From the NCBI GenBank assembly GCA_002787355.1, contig PCWN01000007.1, positions 86,517 through 150,516 on the forward strand: a stretch of 64,000 nucleotides of DNA. Direction: 5' to 3'. The notes below the pieces were generated by a model. That model saw nothing but the letters and a program-made list of their open reading frames with translations, was not told the origin of the DNA and did no database searches. This document shows, in pieces, positions 1,927-44,956 of this stretch. Each line of letters starts with the position of its first letter. The stretch's first letter is position 1. Origin of the DNA: Candidatus Magasanikbacteria bacterium CG11_big_fil_rev_8_21_14_0_20_39_34 (GTDB lineage Bacteria; Patescibacteriota; Patescibacteriia; Magasanikbacterales; UBA922). A program made the translations under genes and the position numbers.

Positions 1927-2376
1927 ATGTCAACCAATACCGTAACATTACACAGGGTGATCAAAGCAGAACCGGAAAAGATTTTTCGCGCCTTTTCTGA
2001 TCCTATGGCTTATTCATGGTGGATACCACCTTACGGATTTTTGTGTCTGGTTGACCATATGGAGTTTAAAGAGGGAGGAACCTACAAGATGTCATTTGTC
2101 AATTTTTCCACTGGAAACAAACATTCCTTTGGTGGTGAATATTTGGAAATAAAGCTAAATGAATTTATAAAAGCCACAGATAAATTTGATGACCCAAATC
2201 TGCAAGGGGAGATGATTACTTCTGTTTGGATCAAAAAAGTTTCATGTGGTACAGAACTTAAAGTTGTTCAAGAAGGTATTCCTTCAGCAATACCAGTAGA
2301 AATGTGTTATTTAGGTTGGCAGGAATCATTGGACAAATTGAAAAAATTGGTTGAACCCGAAATACCAGATGCGTAA
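1927..2376 (+). CDS. SRPBCC / AHSA1 (activator of Hsp90 ATPase homolog 1-like) domain protein
   Basis: 149 aa; IFRAFSDP...WW...G...K..F motif spacing typical of AHSA1/SRPBCC small proteins. Confidence 0.55.
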   Translation: MSTNTVTLHRVIKAEPEKIFRAFSDPMAYSWWIPPYGFLCLVDHMEFKEGGTYKMSFVNFSTGNKHSFGGEYLEIKLNEFIKATDKFDDPNLQGEMITSVWIKKVSCGTELKVVQEGIPSAIPVEMCYLGWQESLDKLKKLVEPEIPDA

Positions 2377-2416
2377 TGCAGAAATGTTAGCAGACATTCA
2401 AATTTGAACAATTTAT

Positions 2417-2797
2417 ATGAAGATACATCACGTAGCGGTAACAGTTAATGATCTCAAAGAAAGTGTCGATTTTTACACCCAAATTTTGGGATTTGAAATC
2501 GCCAGACAATTTGCTCGTGAAGATATGGGAGCATATGCTGCTTTTGTAAAACTAGAAGACTTTAAAATTGAGTTGTGGCAATTTCAAGACACAAAAGAGG
2601 ACGCCAACTCGTTGGGTGACATAAAAGTAATAGGTATCAGACACATTGCGTTTGAAGTCGAAAATCTAGAAGAAACAATTCAGGAATTGTCAAAAAAAGG
2701 ATTGAAATTTACTAAACCAAAACTTGGGGCAAGTGGACATCACTATTCCTTTAGTTCTGATCCAAACGGTGTTGCGCTTGAATTTTATGAAAAATAA
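2417..2797 (+). CDS. VOC family (glyoxalase/bleomycin-resistance-like) protein
   Basis: MKIHHVAVTVNDLKESVDFYTQILGFE, HIAFEVENLEETIQELSKKGL, and a C-terminal DPNGVALEF: classic paired beta-alpha-beta-beta-beta VOC modules. Confidence 0.65.
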   Translation: MKIHHVAVTVNDLKESVDFYTQILGFEIARQFAREDMGAYAAFVKLEDFKIELWQFQDTKEDANSLGDIKVIGIRHIAFEVENLEETIQELSKKGLKFTKPKLGASGHHYSFSSDPNGVALEFYEK

Positions 2798-3233
2798 GGA
2801 GTGCGTTCAAAGTAGATATGTGGTACGAACAGTTGGTTGTTTTCTCGAGTGGGATGGAAAATTCTTAATCCTTTTAAGACGTCCAGAAAAACATGAAGGG
2901 AATAAATGGGATATTCCTGCTGGTAAAGTTAGGTTAAACGAAACTGATAAGCAGGCGATTTTAAGAGAGCTTGAGGAAGAAACCGGTTATAGGGGGGCAG
3001 AAGAGGAGTTGGAACTCATAAGAGATCATGTATTTTATTTTTCTGACCTTATAGTAGAGTTTCCTACATTTCGTATTACGTTACAACAACCAATTGAGGT
3101 TAGGCACAGCCCACAAGAACATCAGAAATATAAATGGGTTACTGCTGAAGAATGTTATGCAATGCCAGATTTACATGCTGGTTTTCATGATCTTTTGGAA
3201 AAGATAGGTTATATTAACACTGGCGCTTCATAA
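2787..3233 (+). CDS. NUDIX hydrolase
   Basis: Nudix box GKVRLNETDKQAILRELEEETGY (GX5EX7REUXEEXGU-like). Start MKNKEC at 2787 within ORF 2724..3233; 11-nt overlap with the upstream VOC gene. Confidence 0.7.
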   Translation: MKNKECVQSRYVVRTVGCFLEWDGKFLILLRRPEKHEGNKWDIPAGKVRLNETDKQAILRELEEETGYRGAEEELELIRDHVFYFSDLIVEFPTFRITLQQPIEVRHSPQEHQKYKWVTAEECYAMPDLHAGFHDLLEKIGYINTGAS

Positions 3234-3275
3234 CATAAAAGTAGTATTTCCGGTTTGCCTATTTGTAAACATTAG

Positions 3276-3797
3276 GTGAAATTTTTAACCCAAAATACTA
3301 TGACAAAAAATATTGTCAATACAGCGTATATCTACATAGCCATTTTTTCGGTGGTTACAATTGAAATTTTTTGTGCCAAATTAGCTTTTGAGACACTTGC
3401 AGAAATTACATCAGGATTATACTTCTTTGTCATTGCAATAAACATAGTCCCCATAGTTTTGATCCTATTTAATAAACAAAAGCATGTAGCAATGGGCATT
3501 ATTGCAGTTATAGGCTTCATAATTATTCCTTATCAACTCTACCTTGGAAATAAATTAATTAACATTAAAGAAGAGGCTGCCAATATTACCGCTTATGTAT
3601 ATGCGCAAAAAGTTGATAATGGTATGTATCCAAAGGACATTTCTGGATACACATTCACATTTCCGGAGTTAAAGAAAAATTTTAATTATAACCAAGAGTC
3701 TCTTGAGCAATTTACACTGTATTATTATGTTGGCAATGAAGGAACATCTCACTTTTATAATTCAGATACGAAAAAGTGGGGTTACTATCCAGACTGA
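3276..3797 (+). CDS. hypothetical membrane protein
   Basis: 173-aa ORF with 3 predicted TM helices in the N-terminal half; no recognisable family. Confidence 0.4.
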   Translation: MKFLTQNTMTKNIVNTAYIYIAIFSVVTIEIFCAKLAFETLAEITSGLYFFVIAINIVPIVLILFNKQKHVAMGIIAVIGFIIIPYQLYLGNKLINIKEEAANITAYVYAQKVDNGMYPKDISGYTFTFPELKKNFNYNQESLEQFTLYYYVGNEGTSHFYNSDTKKWGYYPD

Positions 3798-5555: not shown

Positions 5556-5910
5556 AGAGTTTTGAAAAATGAAACTCACTTCTAACCCCTTTTTCATTTT
5601 TCAAGACGGGAAAAATCAAATTTATAAAGATTGAGGAAAGCCTATTATAATGAGTAAGAACAAGAAATATTTGTTGGGCTCATGTCGCTACGCGCTCCGT
5701 GTCACGCTGTATCCTCGTTGGACTGCGTTTCGCTTGTAGTGTATAACAGTGACTAAATGGAAAGCTCGTTGCACTTCGCTTTTTCAAACTTGCCAATTGT
5801 GAGCCTTCGGTATATTATACAATTAGTAAATTTCGTTTGGTTGCAAACGTTAGGCAAATTGTGTTAACTTTTTCCACGATTTTGCCACTTTAATTATTAC
5901 CTACAAACGT

Positions 5911-6780
5911 ATGAAAAAAATAATTATTTGGGTCATCGTAGTCATTATTGTAGTTGCTATTGGTGAAGGTTTTTGGTGGTGGCAAAACAATAATAAATCT
6001 ATAACAGATACATCTCACACAACAGAGAATGCTGAAGAACTAGTATTGAAAAATGTTAATGAACAAGAAAACAAAATCTTTGATAATAAGAAACTTGTAC
6101 CTTCACAGCAAAATGACAATAAAATTATTTCCTATCAAACAGGAAAATACACTATTTTTTATGAATTGAATAATAATCCCTTTGCACAAAAAAAAGTAAC
6201 TGTTTACTTAGATGATGGCAATGAAAAAACTGAACTATTTCAAGAAACGGCTTGGTCAATTGGCGGTAGCAATCCAGAATTTCAAGAGATAAAATCCAAC
6301 AATATAGTCTTGCTTACTTTTACCAATGGAGACATGGGTTGGTTTCAAAAAAATTATCATTATGTAAATGTCACTAATAAAGAGGTTATATCTGTTGAAG
6401 ATATTGATGTTGATGCTGGGTTAATAAAAATTTCTAATCAAAAACAAGATTGGGAAATTTCCACATTCATAAAAAATGAGTGTAAATATTTTGAAGATGG
6501 AAAAGTTAAAATTAGAGACGGAGAAAATTCATATCTAACGGACTTGACTTTAAATGGTAAAAGAGTCAACGTTCTAACACAAGAAAGGGTATTAAAATGT
6601 ATAGATTCAGATGGTTTAGGCACGGGACTTAATCCTGATGTGGATTTGAAATATTCAGGAATAAGTAAAGATCTATCAAAAATTTTCTTTTCTTTGACAA
6701 GTACAGATGGTGTTGAATTTGCTTTTGATATAAATAATCAAACAATATTAGAAAGTGTGCCACAAGATTTGGTGGAATAA
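5911..6780 (+). CDS. hypothetical membrane-anchored/secreted protein
   Basis: N-terminal TM/signal anchor IIIWVIVVIIVVAIG then a Trp-rich soluble domain; no family recognised. Confidence 0.4.
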   Translation: MKKIIIWVIVVIIVVAIGEGFWWWQNNNKSITDTSHTTENAEELVLKNVNEQENKIFDNKKLVPSQQNDNKIISYQTGKYTIFYELNNNPFAQKKVTVYLDDGNEKTELFQETAWSIGGSNPEFQEIKSNNIVLLTFTNGDMGWFQKNYHYVNVTNKEVISVEDIDVDAGLIKISNQKQDWEISTFIKNECKYFEDGKVKIRDGENSYLTDLTLNGKRVNVLTQERVLKCIDSDGLGTGLNPDVDLKYSGISKDLSKIFFSLTSTDGVEFAFDINNQTILESVPQDLVE

Positions 6781-10936: not shown

Positions 10937-11470
10937 ATGAGTATGGATTTAACACAAGTAAAAATAGAAACAGGACGTCTGCTTCTTGTACCTGTTTCCA
11001 CAGAATATACCGAACAGCTTTTTTCTGGTTATCGTGAACCTGTTATTCAATATATGAATCACGGCCCCGCAGAAAGTTTAGAGGTATTAAAAGAAAGAAT
11101 TTTACAGAAAGAGAAAGATACGAAGGATGGATTGCAACTTCCTTTGGTTGTGCTGAATAAGGAAACAAAAGAGTTTCTTGGTTCATTTGTATTGGAGGAT
11201 CTGGACGGAAGAACTCCTGAGATGGGGGGATGGTTAAAAGAGTCTGCACTTGGAAATCACTACGGTCAGGAAGCTACCGCAGCATTGAAAAATTGGGCAG
11301 ATGAAAATCTTGATTTTGACTACATTATATGGCCATGTGTAGCTACGAATGTTCCAAGCAGAAAACTCGCAGAGTCCCTGGGTGGGAGGGTAGAGAAAGA
11401 ATATGAAAAAAAGACGGCAAGGGGAAAGGTCTGGCCATACGTGGAATACTGGATTTCAAAAAAGTTGTAA
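10937..11470 (+). CDS. GNAT family N-acetyltransferase (RimJ/RimL-like)
   Basis: RLLLVPVSTEYTEQLF N-terminus and the HYGQEATAALKNWADENL acetyl-CoA binding region. Confidence 0.6.
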   Translation: MSMDLTQVKIETGRLLLVPVSTEYTEQLFSGYREPVIQYMNHGPAESLEVLKERILQKEKDTKDGLQLPLVVLNKETKEFLGSFVLEDLDGRTPEMGGWLKESALGNHYGQEATAALKNWADENLDFDYIIWPCVATNVPSRKLAESLGGRVEKEYEKKTARGKVWPYVEYWISKKL

Positions 11471-11472
11471 AA

Positions 11473-11880
11473 ATGTTTTGTATGGATGATAAAGATGAAA
11501 TTTTTGTAAAAAATTCAGTCTTAGAAGGGACTGGGGTTTTTGCGGCCAAAAATTTTAAAAAAGGAGAGGCCGTAACGAAATGGAAAATACAAAAAATATT
11601 AACACACAAGCAGGTACAAAATTTGAGTGAGGAGGAATCCAAATATGTTTCTCAAGTAGGAAAAGATGCCTTTATTATTATTGGAGAGCCGGAAAGGTAT
11701 ATCAATCACTCCTGTAGTCCAAATACACAGATACAGGGTAACTCAGATATTGCTATAAGGGATATAAGAAAAGGTGAAGAGATAACATCAGACTATTCAA
11801 AAGAAGAATATCCGGCCCCATTTACTTGTAACTGTGGGGAAATAAATTGCAAAAAAGACATTGGAAAAATTTTTTCTTAA
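11473..11880 (+). CDS. SET-domain protein (putative lysine methyltransferase)
   Basis: GTGVFAAKNFKKGE (GxG), RYINHSCSPN (NHSCxPN), EEITSDY (ELxFDY) and post-SET Cys cluster CNCGEINC. Confidence 0.7.
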   Translation: MFCMDDKDEIFVKNSVLEGTGVFAAKNFKKGEAVTKWKIQKILTHKQVQNLSEEESKYVSQVGKDAFIIIGEPERYINHSCSPNTQIQGNSDIAIRDIRKGEEITSDYSKEEYPAPFTCNCGEINCKKDIGKIFS

Positions 11881-12386: not shown

Positions 12387-12790
12387 AAAAAATATTAGTA
12401 AACATTATTTTTGGAATACACGTTTGTGTTTTTTTATTTTTTCCCCTCGCTTTTTTTATTCCTGCAAGTGTATGGGAAAAAAGGATTGAATTTCATTTTT
12501 GGTATTGTTTTTCGCTTTTCATGCTCTTTTATCTTTGGGGAATGTTATGGACGCTCAGACGAAAAGATAAAATATACTCCATCTGTATACTGGATACACT
12601 AATGCAATATTTGAGAGGATATTCTATGTGGGATCCTAAAAACTATGAGCACTCCTTTGTAGAGGAAATGACTACAAGATTTGGAAGGCTAAGACTGGCA
12701 AATGAACGTATACCATTACTTTTGCTTATTTGTATTATTTTATCGGCTGGACTATACTTGCTTAAACTTGAGGGGGTTATACTCTATTAA
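12383..12790 (+). CDS. hypothetical membrane protein
   Basis: 135 aa, 3-4 TM. Confidence 0.35.
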   Translation: MKKILVNIIFGIHVCVFLFFPLAFFIPASVWEKRIEFHFWYCFSLFMLFYLWGMLWTLRRKDKIYSICILDTLMQYLRGYSMWDPKNYEHSFVEEMTTRFGRLRLANERIPLLLLICIILSAGLYLLKLEGVILY

Positions 12791-12837
12791 CGAAAAAAGT
12801 ACACTTAATTATATAAAAAAATAAGCAGAAGAACCAT

Positions 12838-13239
12838 ATGCATAGTGAAGAACAAAGAAGACAAACATTAGAGATGGCTTTAACAGAATTTGAGCGGGAT
12901 GAATTTGATGCCGGTGCTAGGTTAACCAGAGATGCGTATAATGTGTGGAATAATATAAAATTATGGTTTGAACTTCGAGATGATATGGGGGATGAAATTG
13001 GGGAATTACAGCCTTTAGAGCATTACGAGCAATATTATAGAAGAACAAGAGCGGAAAGACCCGGAAATGTAGATGCATTAATGATGAGAAGTGACGCTAC
13101 TGCGGTTGCAGAATTTGATGCGCTTGTGGATGAATTTAATAACAATTTAGATTCGATTTTAACAGGTGGTATTGAAGAGGCAAAAAAATATATTGGAAGA
13201 GCAAAGGCGCTTATTGATTCAAATAAGTCTGAAAAATAA
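12838..13239 (+). CDS. hypothetical acidic protein
   Basis: 133 aa, helical and acidic, no family recognised. Confidence 0.4.
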   Translation: MHSEEQRRQTLEMALTEFERDEFDAGARLTRDAYNVWNNIKLWFELRDDMGDEIGELQPLEHYEQYYRRTRAERPGNVDALMMRSDATAVAEFDALVDEFNNNLDSILTGGIEEAKKYIGRAKALIDSNKSEK

Positions 13240-14232: not shown

Positions 14233-14650
14233 ATGTATGAAAAAAACTCTTATCCATGCCGCAGGATGTTTTATGGAATATGATGGAGAATTCATTATTC
14301 TTTTAAGAAATTCAGAAAAACCTGATGGAAATACTTGGGGACTGCCTGCGGGAAAAATAGATTCTGGTGAGACTCCTCTTGGTTGTATTGTCCGTGAAAT
14401 CAAAGAAGAAACTGGATATACGACTGAACCAGAAGAGCTGAAATTTTTGGGGAAATATGAATATTCGTTCCCAGAGTTTAACCTTGTATTTTTTACATAC
14501 AAATTATGTCTCCAAGAACGAATTAAAATCGTATACAGTGAGAGAGAGCATAGAGATTGGATGTATGTATCTGCAGATAATTGTTATAGTATGAAAAATT
14601 TGGTTCGTGGACTTCATGATGTTATAAAGCGGACTGGTTATATAAAATAA
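14222..14650 (+). CDS. NUDIX hydrolase (paralog of 2787..3233)
   Basis: Nudix box GKIDSGETPLGCIVREIKEETGY; N-terminus MKNKC parallels MKNKEC of the first copy. Confidence 0.7.
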   Translation: MKNKCMKKTLIHAAGCFMEYDGEFIILLRNSEKPDGNTWGLPAGKIDSGETPLGCIVREIKEETGYTTEPEELKFLGKYEYSFPEFNLVFFTYKLCLQERIKIVYSEREHRDWMYVSADNCYSMKNLVRGLHDVIKRTGYIK

Positions 14651-14669
14651 AAAAACTCTCATCCGAGAG
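14646..14669 (-). terminator. rho-independent terminator of the GC-rich minus-strand cassette
   Basis: Minus-strand sense CTCTCGGATGAGAG followed by a U-run (plus strand AAAAAAACTCTCATCCGAGAG). Confidence 0.5.
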
Positions 14670-14719
14670 ATTGTGCGACGACCCGAAGAGGTGGGGGATC
14701 CGGGTCGCGGCGAAGGGGG

Positions 14720-14986
14720 CTAGCGGAGGCGTGGCTGCCGCCGAGGAGGAGAGAAGAGGAAGCGGTAGATGGAGTAGATGATCACCACCGTGATGATGAG
14801 GGCGCAGATCTTGGCAGCTTCCTCGGATGGCCACCAGGGGATGAGGTTGAGGCCGAGCCCTGCATCCAGGGTCACCGTCCCCAGGATGAGGTGGCAGAAG
14901 ATAGCAAACACCCGCACGGAGAGCGGGTACTCTTGGGCGGTTTGCTTCCACGTGTTCCCGGTGGTCGTTCTCGCGGTGCCGTGCAT
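14720..14986 (-). CDS. small two-TM membrane protein encoded in a compositionally foreign (GC3-rich) ORF
   Basis: 89 aa, MHGTARTTTGNTWKQ...RQPRLR. Strong GC3 codon periodicity, SD AAGGAGGAG 6 nt before the ATG at 14986, own promoter and terminator. Confidence 0.55.
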   Translation of the reverse strand: MHGTARTTTGNTWKQTAQEYPLSVRVFAIFCHLILGTVTLDAGLGLNLIPWWPSEEAAKICALIITVVIIYSIYRFLFSPPRRQPRLR

Positions 14987-15018
14987 GGGTCTCCTCCTTA
15001 TCATGCGTGGCCGCGCCT

Positions 15019-15047
15019 ATTTTTACAGATTTTTACAAAAAAGTCAA
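15019..15047 (-). promoter_or_regulatory. sigma70-like promoter (TTGACT-16/17-TAAAAAT) driving the GC-rich small ORF
   Basis: Minus-strand TTGACTTTTTTGTAAAAATCTGTAAAAATAGG about 35 nt upstream of the SD. Confidence 0.45.
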
Positions 15048-15120
15048 TTTTTCTTTTAAAACAAGTCTTTTCAAGTAGAAGAAAATTCTATACAATGGAG
15101 ATGGAATAGAAAAATATTTT

Positions 15121-41906: not shown

Positions 41907-42221
41907 ATGATATTTGATGTTACTTTCAATCAAGCGCGAGAACTTGAGGGAATACACAAAGATGTGTTTTTTGTAGATGTTCGTGAAAAAGATGAATGGC
42001 AAACGGGCCATATAAAAGATGCACAACATATTCCTTTTTCACTTTTTGATCATCTTTTTAAAGAGCGACTTCCAGACAAAAAAGCAGCCTACATAGTGTA
42101 CTGTGCAAGTGGCGGGAGAAGCAGAAGAGTCTGTGATTTTTTGGAGTATGAGGGATATGAAAATATCTATAATCTTTTAGGAGGAATTTCCGGGGTCCCG
42201 GAAAGTGAAGTTGAGGTATAA
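41907..42221 (+). CDS. rhodanese-like single-domain sulfurtransferase
   Basis: Active-site loop CASGGRS (CxxGxR) near the C-terminus; 104 aa. Confidence 0.7.
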   Translation: MIFDVTFNQARELEGIHKDVFFVDVREKDEWQTGHIKDAQHIPFSLFDHLFKERLPDKKAAYIVYCASGGRSRRVCDFLEYEGYENIYNLLGGISGVPESEVEV

Positions 42222-42222
42222 T

Positions 42223-43491
42223 ATGAGTCAAAAAATAATTGAAATTATGGCCCCTGCGGGGTCATTTGAGTCTTTACAGGCGGCACTCTTTGCAGGAGCA
42301 AATTCTGTCTACTTTGGTATAGAACAGCTCAATATGCGTGCCCATGCTGCCAACAATTTTCAAATTTCTGACCTGCCAGAAATTGTTCGTCTTTGTGAAG
42401 AAAAAAATTGTAAAACCTATCTCACACTGAATACCATACTGTATAACCATGATATTGTCCTCATGAAAAAAATTATTGATGAGGTAAAAAAAGTTGGTGT
42501 GACTGCGATTATTGCAAGTGATATTGCTGCTATCTCCTATGCAAATGAAGTAGGGGTAGAAGTACATATTTCTACACAGGCCAATGTTTCCAATATTGAA
42601 GCAGTAAAATTTTTTGCAAAATTTGCAGATGTGATTGTGCTTGCTCGTGAGCTTCCTCTTACACACATAAAAAGCATTTGTGAGACTATTGAAAAAGAAC
42701 ACATTTGTGGTCCGAAAGGGAATCTTGTAGAAATTGAAATTTTTGCGCATGGTGCACTGTGTGTTGCTATCTCTGGGAAGTGTTATATGAGTTTGGCTAC
42801 ACAAAATTCTTCAGCAAATCGTGGAGCATGTTTACAAAATTGTAGAAGGTCCTATCGGGTGATAGATGAAGAAACAGGAGAGGAACTGGTTTTGGATAAC
42901 AAATATGTTATGTCTCCAAAGGATTTATGTACCATTGGCTTTATTGATAAAATTTTGGATGCCGGTGTAACGGTACTCAAGCTGGAAGGACGTGGGAGAC
43001 CTGCAGATTATGTACATACGGTAACCAAGACATATCGCGATGCTGCAAATGCCTATCTTGAAGGAACCTACACTCCGGAAAAAATTGAGTCTTGGACGCA
43101 TGATTTGGAAACGGTATTTAACAGAGGATTTTGGCATGGTGGATACTACATGGGCAAACAGCTTGGTGAATGGAGCGGGTTGTATGGATCCAAGGCCAGT
43201 GAGGAAAAAATATATCTTGGAAAAGGACTTCATTATTATGAAAAACCACAGATTGGTGAGTTTACTTTGGAAAGTGGGGAACTTTCTTTGGAGGATGAAG
43301 TATATATTATTGGTCCGACAACGGGAGTCCTCAGACAAAAAGTAACAGCATTGCGCGTAGACGAAGGGGATGTAACGGTCGCAAAAAAAGGGCAAATTTT
43401 TACCATGCCGGTAGAAAAAAAAGTACGATCAAGTGATAAACTGTTTGTGATCAAAAAAAGGAATACAGAATATGCCAAAGGTAACGCATGA
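42223..43491 (+). CDS. peptidase U32 family protein
   Basis: N-terminal TIM-barrel portion IEIMAPAGSFE...E. coli YhbU-like blocks and GALCVAISGKCYMS; ATG 42223. Confidence 0.75.
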   Translation: MSQKIIEIMAPAGSFESLQAALFAGANSVYFGIEQLNMRAHAANNFQISDLPEIVRLCEEKNCKTYLTLNTILYNHDIVLMKKIIDEVKKVGVTAIIASDIAAISYANEVGVEVHISTQANVSNIEAVKFFAKFADVIVLARELPLTHIKSICETIEKEHICGPKGNLVEIEIFAHGALCVAISGKCYMSLATQNSSANRGACLQNCRRSYRVIDEETGEELVLDNKYVMSPKDLCTIGFIDKILDAGVTVLKLEGRGRPADYVHTVTKTYRDAANAYLEGTYTPEKIESWTHDLETVFNRGFWHGGYYMGKQLGEWSGLYGSKASEEKIYLGKGLHYYEKPQIGEFTLESGELSLEDEVYIIGPTTGVLRQKVTALRVDEGDVTVAKKGQIFTMPVEKKVRSSDKLFVIKKRNTEYAKGNA

Positions 43492-43723
43492 TAAGGGAGA
43501 GTGTATTGGTTGTGGCTCTTGTACACTGTATGCAGAGCATTATTTTGAGATAGATAAAGAAGATGATGCCAAAGCGCATTTAATACGTTCTACACAAAAA
43601 GGAAACATGGAAATTTTGGATATAGAAGACTTTGAAATGGAGGTAAATATTGATGCGGCAAGAGGATGTCCCATGAGCTGTATCAAGGTATTGGGAGATG
43701 ATGGAAGAATTTTGGGGGAATAA
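43472..43723 (+). CDS. small ferredoxin-like protein (Cys-x2-Cys-x2-Cys ... Cys-P)
   Basis: ECIGCGSCTLYAE ... ARGCPMSCI; 83 aa; overlaps the U32 stop by 20 nt. Confidence 0.55.
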   Translation: MPKVTHDKGECIGCGSCTLYAEHYFEIDKEDDAKAHLIRSTQKGNMEILDIEDFEMEVNIDAARGCPMSCIKVLGDDGRILGE

Positions 43724-43729
43724 ACGATC

Positions 43730-43758
43730 TTGACAAAAGATGAGGAAAATGGTAAAGT
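43730..43758 (+). promoter_or_regulatory. sigma70-like promoter TTGACA-17-TAAAGT driving the GC-rich ORF
   Basis: TTGACA at 43730-43735, 17-nt spacer, TAAAGT at 43753-43758; directly after the ferredoxin stop. Confidence 0.5.
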
Positions 43759-43872
43759 TTGGTGCTTGCCATTTTTGTTTTTGGGTTCAGAGAAAAGCAA
43801 CAAAGGTTGTTTTTCCCTGGACCCAGTGGTGGTCCGTGTATCCGTGCCGTTGGCACACAGGAAAATGGGGGC

Positions 43873-44586
43873 ATGATGCGAATCAAGCCTTGGAGTGAGC
43901 GCTCGGCGCTCACTCGCCTCCTCGTGATCGAGGGGGAGGTGAATTCGGTTGAGGAACTCGCGACGCGACTGGCCGCGGAGGGACTGCTGGAGTGGGCCAG
44001 CAACAACTCCCTCCGGGCTGTCGTTTCCGAGATCGTCGGTGAGGGCGGCTACAAGGAAGCCGCCCGATGCCGGCAGATCCAGGGAGGCGTCAACCTCGGT
44101 GAGGAGAGCATCGAGATGTTCCGCGCGTGCGCGGAGCGTCTCATCCGGATCGGGGGGGATGAGAACCTCCCCACGATCACCCGAGCGCTCGCTCTGCACA
44201 ACGCCGCTTCCTGCCTCGCGGCGTGGAACGGCGTGGATCTCGATCGCCAGGAGTCACTCAACGAGCGGTCGGTCGAGTTGCTGGAGCAGGTCCCCGAGGC
44301 GAACCGAGGCGACGACTGGTGGGAGGCCTACAGGAAGCCTGTCGTCGGCCTCTTCGAGGCCGGCGTGAAGGCTTGGGATCCCTTCATGTACTTCCAGATT
44401 ATCCGGCGGATGATCGAGAACGGTTCCAAGGACTCAGCGGGTCGTCTCGAGTACTTCATCCGGCGAATGGCCTCCGATCTGGGGGCCATGGCTGGGGTGG
44501 TCCTCGACGAGGAGCTCGGAGCTCACAACCAGCGAGATCGTTTGCTGGCCCTCATGGGGCACCTGCAGGCACTCGTCGCCGCCTGA
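43873..44586 (+). CDS. hypothetical alpha-helical protein encoded in a compositionally foreign (GC-rich) ORF
   Basis: 238 aa (MMRIKPWSERSALTRL...LQALVAA). GC3-rich codons (ctc/atc/ggc/gag) unlike every other gene here. About 107-nt structured GC-rich leader; strong terminator downstream. Confidence 0.55.
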   Translation: MMRIKPWSERSALTRLLVIEGEVNSVEELATRLAAEGLLEWASNNSLRAVVSEIVGEGGYKEAARCRQIQGGVNLGEESIEMFRACAERLIRIGGDENLPTITRALALHNAASCLAAWNGVDLDRQESLNERSVELLEQVPEANRGDDWWEAYRKPVVGLFEAGVKAWDPFMYFQIIRRMIENGSKDSAGRLEYFIRRMASDLGAMAGVVLDEELGAHNQRDRLLALMGHLQALVAA

Positions 44587-44644
44587 TTCACCCCCCACCT
44601 ACGACCTTACCTTCGGCGGCCAGCACCCACATTGGCCGCAAAAA

Positions 44645-44696
44645 ACACCTGAGTTTGTATGTATGCCATATAGCTTCAGGTGTTTTTTTATTTTTG
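44645..44696 (+). terminator. rho-independent terminator after the GC-rich ORF
   Basis: ACACCTGA-(23 nt)-TCAGGTGT followed by TTTTTTTATTTTT. Confidence 0.6.
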
Positions 44697-44956
44697 GATA
44701 AATTCATTGTCATTGCGAGCTGAGTATACAGCGTGGCAATCCACCCACCTGAATATACGCCAATTATGGAATTTCCTCTTCCTAACAAGGAGATTGCCGC
44801 GTCGTCGTGGCGGACTCCTTGTAATGACAAAGTGAAGGATATTCAAAAGTATTATACAACTGGATTACCTGTATATATAGATAATTTTTTGTTTGCAAAA
44901 AAAAGGAAAAGAAGATAGAATAAGGGAAAAAGCTAAGATATATATTTTGTGGGTTT

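Follow-up and report, generated by a model that had tools for sequence, protein, structure and literature searches.

Gene X is a 237-residue open reading frame (ORF) on a 64,000-nucleotide stretch (the window) of Candidatus Magasanikbacteria bacterium CG11_big_fil_rev_8_21_14_0_20_39_34, taken from contig PCWN01000007.1 (positions 86,517 to 150,516, forward strand). It forms the coding part of a GC-rich single-gene cassette that interrupts a dTDP-sugar/glycan locus in an otherwise AT-rich region. The cassette is probably a long-standing, autonomous and hypervariable element of bacteria of the Candidate Phyla Radiation (CPR), whose high GC content would be maintained in place instead of being the left-over signature of a donor. 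The original prediction, which was made from the sequence of this window, had seen in it an ORF acquired very recently under a resident promoter, the cargo of some element, or an artefact of assembly or engineering.

The GC content of the 64 kb window is 36.8%, while that of the block containing gene X (43815-44640) is about 65%. In 200-nt windows GC rises from 0.36-0.40 to 0.61-0.67 across 43800-44600 and is down to 0.39 by 44700, and the GC-rich block takes in, besides the ORF, about 58 nt of the 5′ leader and about 55 nt of the 3′ untranslated region (3′UTR). GC at the first, second and third codon positions (GC1, GC2 and GC3) is 0.69, 0.43 and 0.82 in gene X, with GC3 in 12 neighbouring genes at 0.27-0.35. 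Relative to the 47 other long ORFs of the window, gene X has a codon adaptation index of 0.358 versus 0.692 ± 0.026 (z = −12.9) and a GC3 that deviates by z = +13.4. Recalculation by sliding-window GC, GC3 and codon adaptation therefore upholds what had been predicted of the composition, namely a GC-rich stretch in AT-rich surroundings with foreign codons and GC3 periodicity on the plus strand. The protein is recorded as PIR04017.1 in a metagenome-assembled genome (MAG) of Candidatus Magasanikbacteria. Its public annotation starts at TTG 43759 and gives 274/275 residues, the added in-frame N-terminal part spanning the leader. Because the homologues begin at ATG and the position of the Shine-Dalgarno (SD) sequence agrees, this start is probably over-extended, and the true start would be ATG 43873 or 43876.

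Islands of high GC in AT-rich genomes frequently turn out to be structured RNAs, and since GC-rich DNA has few stop codons, an ORF on such an island could be incidental to a structured non-coding RNA; this island also has long ORFs in further frames and on the opposite strand. That explanation is nevertheless very improbable for X. A single frame is open, GC1, GC2 and GC3 follow a coding pattern, the protein motifs are kept at 30-50% identity over 28 clusters, and the predicted structure has a mean predicted local distance difference test (pLDDT) score of 96. Rfam has no match on the region even at E ≤ 1 and none on the whole window at gathering thresholds, which gives no backing to a known riboswitch, leader or large non-coding RNA. 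The antisense and alternative-frame ORFs were rejected as by-products of GC-richness because those frames carry stops.

The identical X ORF and the same left junction are present in at least 10 independently assembled contigs (JGI samples 3300004210, 3300004185 and 3300025288; ENA ERZ272934xx and ERZ17912254; Logan SRR6240784 and SRR6240789). Since the left junction, the ORF, the terminator and 52 further bases are the same across samples, assemblers and sequencing runs, X is not an artefact, and this part of the original prediction can be set aside. An assembly chimera, contamination or an engineered sequence must be considered extremely improbable, even though several contigs stop 13-149 nt past the X stop codon (L007 and L009 end at about 44735) and one contig, L004, has a different right-hand context (GatC/GatA, which are not in the window). 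The branch point of L004, at about 44751, is downstream of the terminator, inside a palindromic element and away from the edge of the GC island; moreover, homologous cassettes occur in unrelated datasets. The divergence of L004 could reflect a structural variant, or else a point at which the assembly branches. The palindrome itself, which is imperfect and about 130-150 nt long, lies just past the terminator at 44700-44850 (TTGTCATTGCGAG..GGCAATCC ... GGAGATTGCC..AATGACAA) and has no second copy in the window. L004 matches its first 52 nt (L004 10939-10990) and then diverges toward GatC/GatA.

Protein X belongs to a family of 28 proteins or clusters, found by an exhaustive HMMER scan of 1.84 billion representatives. 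The best members are 52% and 46% identical to X and the others 30-40%, with shared motifs YKxAA, GVNxNxES, LHNAAS, NGNxPxxQxxLN, DDDW..EKVxVGLxE, SKDxAGR and SAPNQ. Those that are polar and conserved (LHNAAS, NGNxPxxQ, SKDxAGR and SAPNQ) hint at a ligand site of defined kind. Amino-acid usage is GC-shifted in all 28 members, in which glycine, alanine, arginine and proline together make up 24-35% of residues versus 20% in the neighbours in the window. The AlphaFold2 model built from the family alignment (pLDDT 96.3) is a tetratricopeptide repeat (TPR)-like α-solenoid, all α-helical save for one short β-hairpin; the single sequence gave a poor model (pLDDT 52), and only the family alignment gave a usable one. 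The prediction had named a 238-residue all-helical protein; the protein has 237 residues, and its model the one hairpin. Weak TPR_19, TPR_7 or TPR_12 matches occur in 8 of the 28 members (best E = 0.0013) and none in the window protein.

The statement that X has no recognisable family holds for the named libraries, as neither X, its companion ORFs nor a small membrane ORF gave anything significant in Pfam, NCBIfam, PADLOC or PHROGs, but X does belong to a family, which has about 28 clusters and no name. Pfam and NCBIfam reveal no N-terminal helix-turn-helix (HTH) or phosphatase domain in X, the 55-nt 3′UTR contains no ORF, and inspection of the product shows no obvious signal peptide, lipobox or membrane segment. 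A PDB sequence search with the family profile returned PAT1 only, at a marginal E = 0.01, and a BFVD fold search with the X model returned nothing below E = 0.18. A word-indexed protein search found X itself alone; run with the profile, it gave four distant members. No family members came out of pattern scans of GTDB genomes and of IMG/VR, the pattern scan of JGI metagenomes yielded only the window's own X, and tblastn detected no relatives in 50,697 phage records or 72,556 plasmid records. The family is small and appears to be restricted to CPR/Patescibacteria-type genomes. Most likely X would be a binding adaptor or a sensor that takes part in recognition or conflict linked to the surface-glycan pathway. 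Three members, P0007 (L019 840-1065), P0010 and P0020, have a C-terminal low-complexity tail of 60-80 residues that ends in a similar short motif (HDNLQKNIS, HDLLQKSIK and YNTFKRAS, respectively), which may be read-through into the conserved 3′UTR/terminator region or a true appended tail.

The genes around X, as assigned by Pfam, are those named in the original prediction: RmlB, FdtA-cupin, rhodanese, U32 and ferredoxin on the left, and RmlD with four GT2 genes on the right. Within ±10 kb of X the genes are of sugar-nucleotide, glycosyltransferase and housekeeping types, and neither mobility genes nor target-site duplications are seen around it. Ten distinct alleles were inspected in their contexts, that of the window and those of L011, L012, L015, L016, L017, L018, L019, L020 and L024. 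The gene order is RmlB-FdtA-X-(second GC-rich ORF)-RmlD in L017 and RmlB-FdtA-X in L018, while the left flank in L011 is the end of FdtA, as in L017. In L019, X is followed by an ORF that starts with MKVLILG, like RmlD N-termini, and is probably RmlD. L020 is closely related to the window and is labelled Candidatus Nomurabacteria HK-STAS-PATE-1 (FdtA 89% and RmlB 82% identical); it has a LamG gene, X, a second GC-rich ORF and RmlD, and L012 has the same LamG-X arrangement. X is beside FtsW and UvrB in L015 and L016, and between RuvB and an HD gene in L024. Diverged alleles, 32-53% identical, share the fdtA/rmlD slot in relatives, and most of the ten loci have X in that slot. The empty site is seen in L021, a distant relative whose locus has 49.5% GC, where rmlB-fdtA-rmlD are contiguous, X is absent and 5 nt separate fdtA from rmlD; X was therefore inserted into a tight operon, in agreement with the prediction of a split operon. 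Judged from these gene orders, it is an old insertion common to a clade. The same junction has received other genes, namely rhodanese, U32 peptidase and ferredoxin in the window (41907-43723), a LamG-domain protein in L020 (8470-9822) and in L012, and second GC-rich ORFs in L017 and L020. It looks like an accretion hot spot.

X is far more diverged than its flanks: between the window and L020 the flanking genes have 64-89% amino-acid identity (dN 0.07-0.31, dS saturated), while X is 41% identical, with a dN of 0.58. L011 and L017 have leaders that are 85-90% identical and 3′UTRs that are 82-95% identical at the nucleotide level, yet the ORF between these conserved UTRs is just 36% identical in amino acids, with indels, and the 3′UTR of L017 keeps ctcaccgcctgaac, which corresponds to the last codons and the stop of an L011-type allele. 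L015 and L016 share more than 2 kb of flank at 99-100% identity (dS 0.012), but their X genes have a dS of 0.40 and a dN of 0.20 and are mosaics, made up of blocks whose identity is 50-60%, 100% or about 75%, with differences that include all base types and indels. The host of the window is closest to L020, yet the X of the window is closest to that of L011, whose flanks are L017-like, while the X of L020 is closest to that of L012. Allele relationships, as far as the compared sequences tell, are discordant with host relationships. X is hypervariable, and recombination would be the means by which its alleles are replaced.

Deviant base composition is a standard cue for recent horizontal transfer. 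A one-off, very recent transfer of a foreign ORF under a resident promoter, or the cargo of a recently arrived element, would account for the extreme compositional contrast with its sharp edges, for the identity of all copies in the window's population and for the uninterrupted operon in L021. Nevertheless it is improbable, for the diverged and equally GC-rich alleles stand in the same slot in L020, L017, L018 and L011, the promoter and leader are homologous among genomes and go with the gene, the synonymous sites of the flanks are saturated between the window and L020, both of which have X, and nothing related to mobility is seen nearby. These findings contradict the very recent acquisition that had been proposed. 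The presence of GC-rich homologues in the glycan locus of relatives also speaks for inheritance within that locus, though not simply vertical inheritance, as the alleles appear to have been swapped. An un-ameliorated island of horizontal transfer was rejected as well; the composition deviates, but a homologue is in the same slot in L020 (FdtA 89%), L017, L018 and L011. No donor lineage of island-like composition was found among the 10 loci inspected, and the phage, plasmid and viral searches gave no relatives.

The regulatory parts of the cassette are given in Table 1. The promoter-like site, which the original prediction had recognised as near-consensus, has 10 of 12 consensus matches with a TG before the −10 element and is the best match in the region in a consensus scan. 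TTGACA and TGnTAnnnT are invariant in an alignment of four loci (window, L020, L012 and L024), and the same arrangement is also seen at L011, L017, L018 and L019. In each locus the −10 element lies within or beside a hairpin followed by a T-run, the arm sequences of which differ among loci. This hairpin folds weakly in the window (−7.4 kcal/mol, z −0.75) and in L020 (z −1.6), and is more stable in L017 (z −3.2), L012 (z −3.1) and L018 (z −4.4). A transcript begun at the X promoter would be without the 5′ arm of the hairpin, which is therefore read as a terminator of upstream read-through; it would stop transcripts that enter from the rmlB...ferredoxin operon and so insulate X.

Table 1. Parts of the X cassette, with positions in the window
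Feature	Position	Strand	Description
Promoter	43730-43758	+	−35 TTGACA 43730-43735, 17-nt spacer, extended −10 TGgTAAAGT 43750-43758
Terminator-like hairpin	43748-43782	+	GGTAAAG/CTTGCC then T-run; overlaps −10
5′ leader	43765-43872	+	about 107 nt; two hairpins and purine-rich SD-like stretch
Leader stem-loop	43819-43835	+	GGACC-CAGTGGT-GGTCC; conserved
Second leader hairpin	43844-43856	+	GTGCC-GTTG-GCAC; not conserved
Gene X ORF	43873-44586	+	237 residues and stop; 65% GC; sole stop-free frame
3′UTR	44587-44639	+	C-rich, G-poor; ends in GC hairpin GCGGCCAG...TTGGCCGC at about 44615-44639
Intrinsic terminator	44640-44700	+	A-tract, 14-bp outer stem and inner stem, T-tract; looks bidirectional

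The leader core (43781-43838) is 83% identical to L020 9913-9970, and its first stem-loop is found again at L020, L012 and L024, the last of which has a different genomic context, in a comparison of four alignable leaders with register shifts. C-rich 3′UTRs are also found in L011, L017, L020 and L012. The terminator predicted after the ORF is strong (ΔG −22 kcal/mol, z −5.4, with 0 of 200 shuffles as stable); a simple terminator scanner missed it because of its long loop. The two GC hairpins predicted in the leader are present as sequences, but their folding is not supported by energy. A scan for the leader motif in IMG/VR gave three chance matches within GC-rich coding DNA, and one for the second leader motif gave none. 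The promoter is not a resident one, as had been proposed, since it and the leader stem-loop are kept with X elsewhere, including the different context of L024; promoter and leader belong to the cassette and travel with the gene.

All ten inspected loci are GC islands, with an ORF GC of 0.55-0.65 and a GC3 of 0.71-0.84 in flanks of 0.38-0.50. Since the silent sites of the flanks are saturated between the window and L020, a vertically inherited X under AT-biased pressure should have lost its high GC3, but neither lineage has done so (0.82 in the window and 0.84 in L020). High GC that persists throughout the family inside AT-rich genomes would therefore be actively maintained. Maintenance in place is favoured because all sampled copies lie in AT-rich chromosomes, because the conserved unit itself includes a promoter and leader that are AT-rich, and because the GC-rich UTR segments are stably conserved beside AT-rich flanks.

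In another explanation, X would be imported recurrently from an unsampled GC-rich reservoir, the chromosomal copies being young and un-ameliorated and the promoter and leader imported with them. The reservoir could be a GC-rich replicon, such as a phage or mobile element carried by CPR bacteria, or the GC-rich organism on which these episymbionts live. Alleles would pass most of their evolutionary time there and be brought back into the same slot again and again by recombination. Such a source would agree with the shift of GC1, GC2 and amino-acid usage, which is that of true GC-rich genomes, with the replacement of alleles and their discordance with host relationships, and with the presence of other GC-rich orphan genes in the same genomes. 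It would also agree with a GC-rich purA in L012, the named relatives of which are Geobacter, Myxococcales and Nitrospira at 55-61%, and the context has been inspected for only 10 of about 28 clusters. We regard recurrent import as unlikely, though worth keeping in mind. All ten loci have AT-richer chromosomal flanks and none is in a GC-rich contig; the phage, plasmid, IMG/VR and BFVD searches described above returned no relatives; an AT-rich promoter and leader in the conserved unit would be odd for a replicon of 65% GC; and the GC-rich UTR parts are about 90% conserved between L011 and L017 beside AT-rich flanks, which points to stable residence.

Several observations weigh against maintenance in place. 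The contexts examined are those of 10 of about 28 clusters, and there may be members that lie in GC-rich genomes or on mobile elements. The shift is seen at GC1 and GC2 besides GC3, as a true GC-rich mutational background would give, and the other GC-rich orphan ORFs (window 14650-15050, L024, L017 and L020) fit a general influx of GC-rich DNA, as does the purA of non-CPR type that adjoins X in L012. To our knowledge, no bacterium has been shown to undergo GC-biased conversion of this magnitude (GC3 from 0.30 to 0.82), and X has neither the GC skew nor the silent donor cassettes of vls-type systems. X is monomorphic in the window's own population, in which all copies are 100% identical. The leader hairpins of the window fold no more stably than shuffled sequences (z = −0.08), and the function of protein X is one that we infer.

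In the favoured explanation, the unit would have been inserted at the fdtA/rmlD junction of the dTDP-sugar/glycan locus in the ancestor of the clade, as an insulated, autonomous transcription unit made up of a promoter with an embedded terminator-like hairpin, a leader, an ORF, a 3′UTR and a terminator. The coding part would have been hypervariable since then, with alleles replaced or patched segment by segment through homologous recombination, for which the conserved leader and 3′UTR, or the flanks, could serve as homology arms. High GC may be kept by GC-biased repair or conversion tied to frequent recombination, or by selection on the DNA or mRNA.

The X cassette has features in common with several known systems, but also its own distinctive ones. 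Phage morons, in the concept of Hendrix and colleagues, are single genes of deviant composition, each with a promoter and a terminator of its own, that lie between genes adjacent in relatives. X likewise is a predicted promoter-ORF-terminator unit of deviant composition between genes that are adjacent in a relative. Unlike a moron, however, it is in the glycan locus of a bacterial chromosome, has no phage relatives and no significant PHROGs match, holds diverged alleles in its slot across a clade, and is consistently GC-richer than its surroundings.

Neisseria pilE/pilS is a gene-conversion system similar to vls, the antigenic-variation locus of Borrelia. The segmental mosaic of X between the near-identical strains of L015 and L016 resembles what is seen in both systems. 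The variable cassettes of vls have 49.1% GC versus 28.6% in the genome, a difference that is kept across lineages and is regarded as upheld by selection for the sake of gene conversion (PMC11499132); their GC skew is 0.52. X is similar in having a GC content about 20-28 points above its AT-rich genome across lineages, but its GC skew is 0.01-0.09 in all ten alleles. A search of about 160 kb of locus sequence, including the 64-kb window, turned up no silent segments that resemble X in DNA or protein. In further contrast to vls, the X product, by inspection, has no signal peptide or lipobox and does not look surface-exposed, and its variation is seen between strains and species, not as switching within a clone.

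Displacement of alleles or cassettes within conserved flanks is known from RRNPP-type TPR pherotype loci, Rhs/CDI toxin/immunity loci and O-antigen/capsule genes, which appear to be good functional analogies for X. X has the predicted TPR-like α-solenoid fold of an RRNPP receptor, but it is without an HTH or phosphatase domain and without an adjacent signalling-peptide gene. No toxin gene adjoins X in the window, unlike in Rhs/CDI loci, and the compositional anomaly of X is opposite in sign to that of the usual low-GC O-antigen genes. The lgr genes of Protochlamydia amoebophila, like X, are lineage-restricted genes for helical/repeat proteins that are GC-richer than their AT-rich genome (41-43% versus 34.7%), with a codon usage reported as not different from that of the genome (PMC2216083). 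The contrast is larger in X (65% versus 37%, with the codon adaptation deviation given above), and lgr genes are large paralogues, whereas X is a single-slot cassette.

Two further candidates were rejected. A diversity-generating retroelement target would vary at adenines alone, while the differences between L015 and L016 span all base types and include indels; no reverse transcriptase domain is among the recorded neighbours of the X loci. An integron cassette does not fit a gene with its own conserved promoter and with 3′ hairpins that differ among loci, and no integrase is among the called genes within ±10 kb of X. No description of such GC-rich cassettes in CPR bacteria was found in the literature.

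Other small GC-rich genes are found in these genomes. The second GC island of the window (14650-15050, minus strand; GC 0.56-0.60 versus 0.37) has one small ORF (14720-15004) of about 88-94 residues with two hydrophobic segments by eye and no family match in any library. Its anatomy is X-like, with its own TTGACT...TAAAAAT promoter-like site, an AGGAGG SD sequence, a GC hairpin and a terminator. The second GC-rich ORFs after X in L017 (8043-8750; 235 residues, GC 0.54) and in L020 (10923-11312; 129 residues, GC about 0.58) each have their own promoter-like site and have no detectable homology to X or to families of Pfam, PADLOC, PHROGs or NCBIfam; the L017 locus has both the leader and the 3′UTR hairpin in duplicate. 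Besides X, L024 has three more GC islands (261-720, 5691-6040 and 12411-12930) of 0.62-0.68 in a locus of 0.47, the first and third of which coincide with called genes without a recorded Pfam domain. On the minus strand of L004, a GC-richer stretch (about 11080-11280) lies between a TTGACA-N17-TATATA promoter-like site and a terminator and may be another mini-cassette or a small RNA. The GC-rich segment adjacent to it (about 11390-11530) has the look of a structured RNA. In L012, purA (adenylosuccinate synthetase; 2372-3418), directly downstream of X, has a GC of 0.59 and a GC3 of 0.62, and the LamG gene near it has a GC of 0.42. The nearest relatives of its product are metagenomic proteins (70%), followed by Geobacter, Myxococcales and Nitrospira types (55-61%), which points to an older acquisition from a non-CPR source; the protein search gave no clear donor. 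Orphan mini-genes of high GC seem to be common to these genomes in general. As a tentative and rather doubtful extension, the CPR might harbour an unrecognised class of autonomous, hypervariable single-gene cassettes, 20-28 GC points above the genome and kept so in situ by recombination-linked GC bias or dedicated diversification, with X as the prototype and the other GC-rich mini-genes as members.

For X, base composition is a misleading cue to recent transfer, since the family has about 60-65% GC (GC3 about 0.8) in genomes of 37-47% GC and this composition persists even though the alleles are 30-50% identical and the neighbours are saturated at silent sites. If its GC content is maintained in place, X would be among the strongest local departures from genomic mutational equilibrium in bacteria and would lend itself, as a natural example, to testing GC-biased gene conversion or selection on GC content. 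If there is a class of such cassettes, ultra-small symbiotic bacteria would possess diversity-generating loci of a new type. X also defines a confidently folded, unannotated and hypervariable protein family linked to cell-envelope glycan genes, a locus of the kind expected to mediate the recognition of, or conflict with, hosts or phages by episymbionts, a field of which almost nothing is known. In practice, X shows that a GC island in a MAG can be genuine and need not stem from faulty binning or assembly.

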